Positions 13,459 to 15,741 of a stretch of 64,000 bases of DNA are shown here, one piece after another (position 1 is the stretch's first letter; each line of letters opens with the position of its first letter). The notes under the pieces are model-generated. The model was not told where the DNA came from. It did not search any database and saw only the letters and a list, made by a program, of their open reading frames with translations. The stretch comes from Octopus vulgaris (lineage: Eukaryota): the NCBI GenBank assembly GCA_951406725.2, contig OX597817.1, forward strand, positions 109,740,001-109,804,000, in the 5' to 3' direction. The position numbers and the translations under genes were made by a program.

Positions 13459-14350
13459 CATGTTACTTGTTTTTATATACCTATGACGGGATGATTCCTC
13501 TTGTCGTATGATGTTCGGATACATTCTTATTACTCTGAAATGTAAAAACTACAACTCAGTGATAGCATTGCAAATTTATTGTAGCACTACTACTGGCTCT
13601 TGACTTGCAGCCCACACTCAACCAAAATTATGCATTACAAATGTCTTGAGAAGTATTCAGAAAAATAAATTGTTGCAGTCCTTCCTTGATGTACCTTGTA
13701 CGGATTCAACCTGTACACAAACGTTTATTGCTTCTTACATCTCAAACATAATTATAGCTTTGGATTTTATTTCAGTTCCCAAACTCCTCTCTCTATAGAT
13801 GTATTACAACTATAGCTGATAAATTGCTTAGCTCTGCAATATAAAAGACGTGAATACAACGTAAAACATGAAACAAATCACTCGATAAATACACTTAGAT
13901 ACTTCTATCAAAGTATTTTTCTCCCTTTTATATATTCGTTTGCTTAGTTCACTTTTTTTAGTTTTCACTTGATCTTCACTATGATATACTCAAAACCAAA
14001 TACATATATAATTTAAACTGTTTCAGTAGACCAGTCTGGATATTTTAAAGGGGTCCCTAAATATTGGTGGAAGTCGATATTCCAATCATAAATTGTATTT
14101 CCAGATTTCCATTTCTAAATAAACGTAACTAAATATATCCGAATTTTCATCAAAAGAAATATATTTTAAAACTTTTATGCACAAAGTCATACATTTATAT
14201 TCAATCGGCACTAGTATTTGTTTCACAATTATATATTGGAAAGATATAAAGCAAAGTTGAGTCCTATTTAGCAAAACATTTAATCAGGCATCTATTCTTC
14301 TCCTAATTCACCGCCATACTTATATATTCTATGATTAATTGTTGTGAAAG

Positions 14351-14386
<36 letters not shown>

Positions 14387-14541
14387 AAATTCAAAATGCG
14401 ATAAAATAAAATAATTATTATCGCTGGTGTTTCTAGCACGGCCATATATTTTTCATATATAGTACATTAAAGGCGAAGTATGTACTAGAAACACAGAAGC
14501 TTGATAAATTTAGTGAAATGAAGATAAAAATAACTCTGTTC

Positions 14542-14616
14542 ATCTTAGACTGCAGTTTCGCCTTTTTCAGCAATAAAAATAATATTTATTTACTCAGGTA
14601 GGCTCTTCAGTAAGAT
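14542..14616 (-). ncRNA. type I hammerhead ribozyme, intact core (copy 1)
   Basis: AUCUUA-CUGAAGA-GCCU...AGGC-GAAA-CUGCAG-UC-UAAGAU: 6-bp stem I, full core, 4-bp stem II with extension, palindromic stem III, GUC site. Confidence 0.85.
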
Positions 14617-14940
14617 TCCTGTTATTATGAAGCGCAACTCGATAGAAACATGTGCGTCTACTAATTTGCTCTTTCTAACTAATCAGATCACTGCGCAGAC
14701 GCAGAACGAACCCGACAAACTAGGGATTTCTGGTATATAGTCTAACGCTCAAAATTTATCGAGAAATATGTAAACAAATTCAAAATGCGATAAAATAAAA
14801 TTAATTATTATCGCTGGTGTTTCTAGCACAGGCCATATATTTTTCATATATAAGTACATTAAAGGCGAAATATGTACTAGAAACACAGAAGCTTGATAAA
14901 TTTAGTGAAATGAAGATAAAAACTTTTACTAACTCTGTTC

Positions 14941-15015
14941 ATCTTAGACTGCAGTTTCGCCTTTTTCAGCAATAAAAATAATATTTATTTACTCAGGTAG
15001 GCTCTTCAGTAAGAT
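14941..15015 (-). ncRNA. type I hammerhead ribozyme, intact core (copy 2)
   Basis: Identical to copy 1, exactly 399 bp away. Confidence 0.85.
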
Positions 15016-15321
15016 TCCTGTTATTATGAAGCGCAACTCGATAGACACATGTGCGTCTACTAATTTGCTCTTTCTAACTAATCAGATCACTGCGCAGACG
15101 CAGAACGAACCCGACAAACTAGGGATTTCTGGTATATAGTCTAACGCTCAAAATTTATCGAGAAATATGTAAACAAATTCAAAATGCGATAAAATAAAAT
15201 TAATTATTATCGCTGGTGTTTCTAGCACAGGCCATATATTTTTCATATATAAGTACATTAAAGGCGAAATATGTACTAGAAACACAGAAGCTTGATAAAT
15301 ATAGTGAAATGAAGATAAATA

Positions 15322-15371
<50 letters not shown>

Positions 15372-15384
15372 CATATATATACAT

Positions 15385-15449
<65 letters not shown>

Positions 15450-15741
15450 AAAATAAGACATGATAGAAAATGCTTCTCTTATTTTCCTTTACCATTTTCT
15501 ACCTTGTCTTATTTTCTTTATACATATCAACTCGTGTATTCATTTTCAACCTTCTACACATACACACTCACACACACACACACAGATATACATATACATC
15601 TTGTTTATTCTGGGTGGGTCATTATGCCAGTAATAATAAACATACACACTGGTTATATTTCGCTTCTTACTTATTGGCCAATCGATATGTTATCTAACCA
15701 ACCAATTCATTGAACGTTTCTTTTATATATACATGTGTATG

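Follow-up and report, generated by a model that had tools for sequence, protein, structure and literature searches.

A dispersed family of 399-nt hammerhead repeats in Octopus vulgaris with fixed 3' ends in (TA)n tracts

The 399-bp tandem array analyzed here, located in a 64,000-nucleotide stretch of Octopus vulgaris DNA (contig OX597817.1; hereafter the window, to which all coordinates refer), belongs to a non-LTR retrozyme family whose copies, dispersed through the genome, number in the hundreds. A fixed 3' end combined with scattered 5' ends identifies the mode of insertion of this family as target-primed reverse transcription that starts at one fixed internal site. We consider it probable (about 0.68) that the array is a young member of a non-coding, dispersed family of hammerhead repeats, and that this family spreads when the enzyme of a Penelope-like element (PLE) copies a small RNA circle into (TA)n microsatellites. 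In the proposed cycle, read-through transcription of arrays with at least two ribozymes would be followed by self-cleavage to a 399-nt monomer and ligation of the monomer to a circle; a GIY-YIG PLE protein would nick (TA)n and prime at one internal site ~175 nt past the cut, with the nicked DNA end likely pairing with the AU-alternating motif at that site. The enzyme would then roll round the circle and let go after a run of variable length (median about 320 nt); because the run length varies, only a minority of insertions would regain two ribozymes and could seed the next round.

Array and ribozymes in the window

An earlier note, made from the letters of the window, had described a 399-bp repeat of about 2.4 units flanked by (TA)n tracts, and TRF recovers the same array (period 399, 2.4 copies, 97% matches, 14377-15329) with the TA flanks in place. 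The features are:

14383..15327, minus strand: retrozyme insertion, ~2.4 passes of the 399-nt unit
14941..15015, minus strand: type I hammerhead 1 (Rfam RF00163, 36.3 bits), predicted cut 14947/14946 after GUC
14542..14616, minus strand: type I hammerhead 2 (Rfam RF00163, 36.3 bits), predicted cut 14548/14547
14548..14946, minus strand: 399-nt monomer, predicted product of double self-cleavage and candidate circle
14383..14547, minus strand: 3'-most partial pass, probably the first to be reverse-transcribed, stopping at the fixed 3' end of the family (14383)
14947..15327, minus strand: 5'-truncated last pass, monomer 19-399
14766..14772, minus strand: internal copy of the putative reverse-transcription start motif UACAUAU (monomer 175-181), repeated at 15165-15171
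about 14352-14383: (TA)n target tract at the 3' end of the element
15326-15447: (TA)n tract at the 5' end of the element
15448..15565, plus strand: separate, heavily truncated PLE-family 3' end with tail, including a short inverted piece at ~15448-15477 and sharing the TA tract of the array

Numbered from the cut, the insertion comprises monomer positions 19-399, 1-399, and 1-175. Both hammerheads and both predicted cuts had been proposed in the earlier note, and their motif letters and positions check; the two Hammerhead_1 matches are identical to each other, exceed the Rfam gathering score, and are the sole Rfam matches in the 64 kb, with no ribozyme found by the Rfam scan on the opposite strand of the window. 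The view that the unit has no meaningful ORF also holds: on the circularized monomer, read in either polarity, the longest Met-ORF is 37 aa, all six frames contain 7-15 stops per turn, and no endless or long ORF was found. No array examined has an LTR-plus-interior layout, and the unit falls within the range of non-LTR retrozymes (150-450 bp, <50% GC; GC is 0.29 over 14001-15000). The 13 ORFs of the window gave zero Pfam matches above cut-off, and therefore no host gene context was established.

The partial unit at 14383-14547 carries one 7-nt and three 1-nt deletions relative to the next unit, all outside both ribozymes and outside the predicted 399-mer. Four deletions within 165 bp exceed what is seen in sister arrays, and are unexplained; reverse transcriptase slips, later decay, or assembly error are candidate causes. 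The same partial pass carries the common allele at monomer position 77, and 77T is common to two passes of the window array and absent from the third; one unit may derive from a later DNA-level duplication.

Self-cleavage by these hammerheads, whose core is intact, is plausible. Stems I and II show compensatory changes across subfamilies. Across 15 chosen variants the stems pair in 91.3% of cells, vs 30-45% in slid controls, and two pairs have changed on both sides; the covariation score was reached by 12 of 500 shuffles, and relatedness can inflate it. In one subfamily three stem II pairs have changed together, but with an A-C mismatch at the stem base and a U4C core. Variation is 0.028 in the ribozyme vs 0.047 in the rest of the unit, a comparison biased by the selection of 42 loci and given no weight here. 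For an 88-nt fragment, the active monomer fold is predicted at -9.4 kcal/mol (constrained) vs -15.3 kcal/mol for the free, inactive fold; this difference of 5.9 kcal/mol counts against the circle mechanism that we prefer. The whole monomer is 60% paired and folds no better than shuffles (z -1.24 linear, -1.27 circular). The earlier note had suggested that palindromic stems III allow two tandem hammerheads to adopt a dimeric fold. The stem III palindromes of both ribozymes do pair together in the predicted fold of the array RNA; however, the anatomy does not require a dimer, because, by predicted folding, the stem III of a monomer can form on its own, with 2 bp and a tetraloop.

A dispersed family with a fixed 3' end

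The assembly that contains the window comprises 2.8 Gb in 227 contigs. A monomer search returned 643 candidates, 40 of which were scored; their full units are 95-100% identical, and the arrays are spread over many chromosomes. Exact patterns matched 52 junctions and 94 ribozyme cores, and a looser ribozyme motif gave at least 391 matches, with 0 control matches in each case. Ribozyme spacing is ~398-404 across subfamilies. The unit was also found in contigs of independent public runs, and runs under four organism labels contain the stretch. Duplication at a single locus and an assembly artefact, both raised in the earlier note as grounds for abandoning the retrozyme reading, thus fail as explanations of the family. 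Two arrays 50 kb apart on one contig (L207 and L208, G000:C24) represent one insertion with identical flanks, likely copied by segmental duplication and so not independent events.

Ends and variants were compared in a detailed set of 116 arrays (40 from the monomer search, 42 new from exact cores, and 34 from exact junctions) and in a third set of 40 further, mostly more diverged loci drawn from the first 100 listed of the at least 391 loose-motif matches. In the sets not selected on ends, the 3' end lies ~175 nt past the cut, against (TA)n, in 81 of 82 arrays, being at or within ~10 nt of monomer 175 in 40/40 monomer-search arrays and 41/42 ribozyme-core-search arrays (L211 was included in this class, and L172 treated as the exception, by inspection). 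The circular permutation with free ends that had been proposed for the insert is contradicted by this regularity; the predicted genome search for differently permuted arrays did recover other arrays, but with the 3' end fixed and only the 5' end, which is scattered, varying. A TA tract adjoins the 3' side of 109/116 arrays and the 5' side of 93/116. Among the 52 exact-junction insertions, length ranges from 30 to 2313 nt with a median of 322, and only four reach two-ribozyme length. Within the third set, 35/40 loci end near 175 on at least one arm and one ends elsewhere; in six of the 40, an end lies at a second AU motif, which corresponds by homology to about position 95. Inverted arms, read by eye, occur in seven of the 40. 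Both features are found in diverged subfamilies. Neither inverted arms nor the second start site occur among the 116 arrays.

The terminal letters bear on how reverse transcription would be primed. Among 51 young ends, 35 read GTTTATATAT vs GTTTACATAT in the internal copy, that is, mostly ATATAT against template ACATAT, with ACATAT kept in two; 29 older ends retain 0, 2, or more template letters, varying in a 2-nt register, and 5/80 classified ends are out of register. The target-like terminal letters, together with AU-motif starts in two PLE families and in a second ribozyme family, favor pairing of the primer with the template. Better TA-like motifs at 95, 107, and 208 are unused by the young subfamily; thus, pairing alone cannot pick the start, and a protein-positioned site would also be needed. 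A word shared between the two flanks was seen in 5/116 arrays, none placed as a unique target-site duplication, although such duplications could go unseen because the TA tracts would mask them. As separate observations, L172 and L186 have TA or AC tracts at or across the cleavage site.

Template of reverse transcription

Thirty-six of the 52 exact-junction insertions reach the first cut site and none stops within 5 nt of it, and the TC/TAAG junction is exact in 126 of 131 passes. Read-through of the cut with exact junctions indicates a template that is either circular or uncleaved. A pile-up of 5' ends at the cut site was considered and rejected, with none among these 36 insertions. Sixteen private variants occur in every pass of their array, in 13 of 52 multi-pass arrays (those of the window excluded), vs 58 single-pass private variants, with 0.02 independent double hits expected by chance; "private" here means absent from the other arrays of the 116 analyzed, out of at least 391 motif matches. 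Every-pass private variants are most simply explained by one RNA molecule having been read more than once, with unsampled sources or gene conversion between neighboring units as possible contributors. The multi-locus arrays, read-through, and every-pass variants bear out the earlier identification of the insert as a retrozyme and as a rolling or multimeric reverse transcript. Some long arrays have later gained units through DNA-level duplication: in L122 (~5.8 units), unit sharing at period 3 is the signature of such duplication.

It is unlikely, although it deserves serious weight, that the same element and PLE enzyme operate on uncleaved linear RNA, a multimeric transcript of a few homogenized master arrays, with circles, if made, as by-products. 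Such a template would accord with the use of unprocessed RNA by a PLE in vitro, where ribozyme mutants still inserted (PMC11167929), with the existence of long arrays carrying DNA-level duplication (L122), and with predicted folding that favors inactive ribozyme states. However, heterogeneous masters should give repeated position-specific differences between passes, and by inspection nearly all such differences are confined to single arrays; no exact-core locus, all of which were examined, carries the shared private variants of the short arrays L004, L005, L007, and L008. Repeated 5' truncation would also be expected to erode multimers without a regenerating step, and ribozyme pairing has been kept via compensatory change.

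A cleaved linear monomer is an improbable template; on it, the enzyme would mimic a circle by jumping, at the cut, from the 5' to the 3' end. Template jumping is known for non-LTR reverse transcriptases, and one array, L172, has its end at the cut site, before a TA tract, but the absence of a 5'-end excess at the cut (0/36) and of added bases in 126/131 junctions speaks against it. Least probable, and largely refuted, is the reading in which DNA-level processes spread a minisatellite whose ribozyme is incidental or dead: some arrays do have local unit duplications, and no run containing the unit is on record as RNA, but the fixed 3' end, the graded truncation of the 5' end, the preference for a single target, and the inverted arms are signatures of retrotransposition, and the ribozyme covaries.

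In three runs guessed to be RNA, the unit is covered by contigs of 284 nt (0 differences), 382 nt (2 differences), and 303 nt (7 differences) at a depth of 3-9; the 382-nt contig spans the cut and the start site, and contigs can reveal neither circles nor strand. The unique left flank is uncovered in these three runs, and this gap is given no evidential weight. The contigs offer a weak hint of expression, at the level of the family only. On the ribozyme strand, variants common to passes or arrays include 19 A>G vs 8 T>C (p 0.013, one-sided), whereas locus-level variants include 11 A>G vs 19 T>C (Fisher p 0.017 vs lineage-level variants, in a post hoc test); under a stricter definition the A>G excess is 9 vs 6 (p 0.23). 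A-to-I editing of the RNA is possibly the source of the A>G changes, as a lead only. We tentatively put forward, with slightly more doubt than confidence, a fuller reading in which the genome records rolling-circle target-primed reverse transcription: a PLE would prime a ribozyme-made circle via (TA)n/AU pairing, and RNA-level changes, possibly A-to-I, would be written into the germline at every pass.

Penelope-like elements and related retrozymes

A GIY-YIG search of the genome returned 6136 candidates, 150 of which were scored. Young, intact PLEs have an unbroken 781-aa frame with reverse transcriptase and C-terminal GIY-YIG domains, a CxxC linker, an upstream ORF, and pLTRs of 450-500 bp; the upstream frame of this two-ORF PLE is 479 aa and has no family match above cut-off. 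PLEs with the 781-aa frame terminate in (TA)n, optionally with a tail of ~38 nt, and many of their copies are 99-100% identical. In a second PLE family the frame is 785 aa long and is accompanied by a minimal hammerhead; the minimal hammerheads of both families (L124-L135, L245-L251) share a U3-A8 core variant. By domain order and the CxxC motif only, the resident PLEs would be assigned to the linker Zn-finger (Neptune/Nematis) type. Certain homologs of the PLE protein (P0030, P0041, P0055, and others) are labeled as bivalve gill-symbiont, and are probably host contamination of those assemblies.

Intact PLEs end at fixed AU-motif sites in (TA)n, and so share both target and geometry with the retrozyme. 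In the window, the segment 15448..15565 could be aligned with the 3' end of an intact PLE; a genome search with it gave 1392 candidates, 40 of which were scored. Its relatives carry a minimal hammerhead, with GIY-YIG-end coding sequence upstream in 2/20. The unit itself had no match in 46 GIY-YIG-anchored loci and a best E of 0.12 in 13 more; no pLTR homology to the unit was found in the PLE loci sampled (top-scoring families of the 6136 GIY-YIG candidates), a low-threshold Rfam scan of PLE loci gave microsatellite noise only, and no linked ORF was found upstream of the retrozyme in 40 further loci. Resemblance between the start sites of unit and PLE gives p 0.017-0.52, uncorrected. Because no PLE shares unit sequence beyond this weak start-site resemblance, the identity of the helper is deduced from behavior. 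The PLE fragments found near some arrays sit on the downstream side and have the appearance of insertions in their own right.

Other hammerhead repeats occur in the same genome. A second family with a period of 445-457 (L140:3600-5400, G000:C5 at about 6.79 Mb; L215-L244) also targets (TA)n, starts at two sites, and often has inverted arms; a stretch of 31 nt is common to it and the 399 family (84%), and this shared motif matches 316 times across the two families. An intermediate ribozyme repeat (L242:1735-2240), 73% identical to the 445 family and 69% to part of the 399 unit, lies immediately upstream of a 399-family copy within one TA tract. A third hammerhead element (L213:3340-3900), with a palindromic CGAUCG stem III, forms a direct and inverted pair beside a PLE end, and abundant older hammerhead families with GACC/GGUC stem II are present mostly as single copies (L141-L170).

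The 399-nt family belongs to the non-LTR retrozymes and behaves like a non-autonomous PLE passenger. It resembles metazoan non-LTR retrozymes as described in PMC7229834 in having a type I hammerhead in every short, AT-rich tandem unit, in lacking an ORF, in its dispersed oligomeric arrays, and in its short palindromic stem III; mussel retrozyme repeats are reported as 350-390 bp (Cervera and de la Pena, 2020, PMC7229834), and self-cleavage to a monomer and ligation to a circle are described there as demonstrated for coral, mussel, and axolotl retrozymes. Unlike those elements, the fold here is not notably stable, and cleavage and circular RNA are predictions from sequence; in addition, no unique target-site duplication is seen here, and (TA)n insertion with one fixed 3' end is undescribed in the results and discussion of that paper. 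In giant squid, 235 hammerhead hits have been reported (PMC6962438). The literature searched, which excluded Repbase and most subscription papers, held no description of the 399-nt family or of fixed retrozyme ends, although an octopus entry in the supplement of PMC7229834 is possible.

Co-occurrence with intact PLEs is shared with the PLE-derived retrozymes of Xenopus (Li, Clavereau, Pollet, 2026, 10.64898/2026.07.22.740005), and the window array has the two consecutive units with complete ribozymes by which that preprint calls an array active. The preprint reports 8/9 Xenopus dimers without cleavage in vitro. There, pLTR homology is given for 24/57 families and local DNA amplification of the PLE end is favored; in contrast, the octopus family has no pLTR homology in the sampled loci, and its array ends and shared variants indicate multimers arising mainly from reverse transcription. 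With Neptune/Nematis-type PLEs (10.1101/2021.04.23.441226) and the Poseidon element PAc (PMC11167929), as presented in those sources, the family shares a fixed internal start, 5' truncation, partial tandems, an AT-rich target, inverted arms, and second start sites (the last two here in diverged subfamilies), but the retrozyme is non-coding and its hammerhead canonical rather than minimal. Internal initiation of reverse transcription was shown in vitro for a PLE (PMC11167929); for PAc, uncleaved linear RNA is given as the main substrate and the start site as not homologous to the target, whereas here the start site resembles the target. Chlamys non-autonomous elements such as MRC1 differ in sharing 3' sequence with their autonomous partner, in a clade reported without hammerheads (10.1101/2021.04.23.441226).

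The retrozyme life cycle is established only up to the circular RNA; that the circle is then reverse-transcribed, and by which helper, is presented as hypothesis in PMC7229834 and PMC7761336, and is left unresolved in 10.64898/2026.07.22.740005. In the octopus family the genomic footprint of the mobilization step is unusually clear: the insertions show at which nucleotide copying starts, which target is used, how run lengths are distributed, and which variants stem from a shared template, and the genome also contains intact candidate enzymes. The missing mobilization step is thus directly testable in vitro with defined reagents and, if the PLE-driven copying of a circle proposed here is true, the family would be a retrozyme whose helper is intact and can be identified within its own genome.
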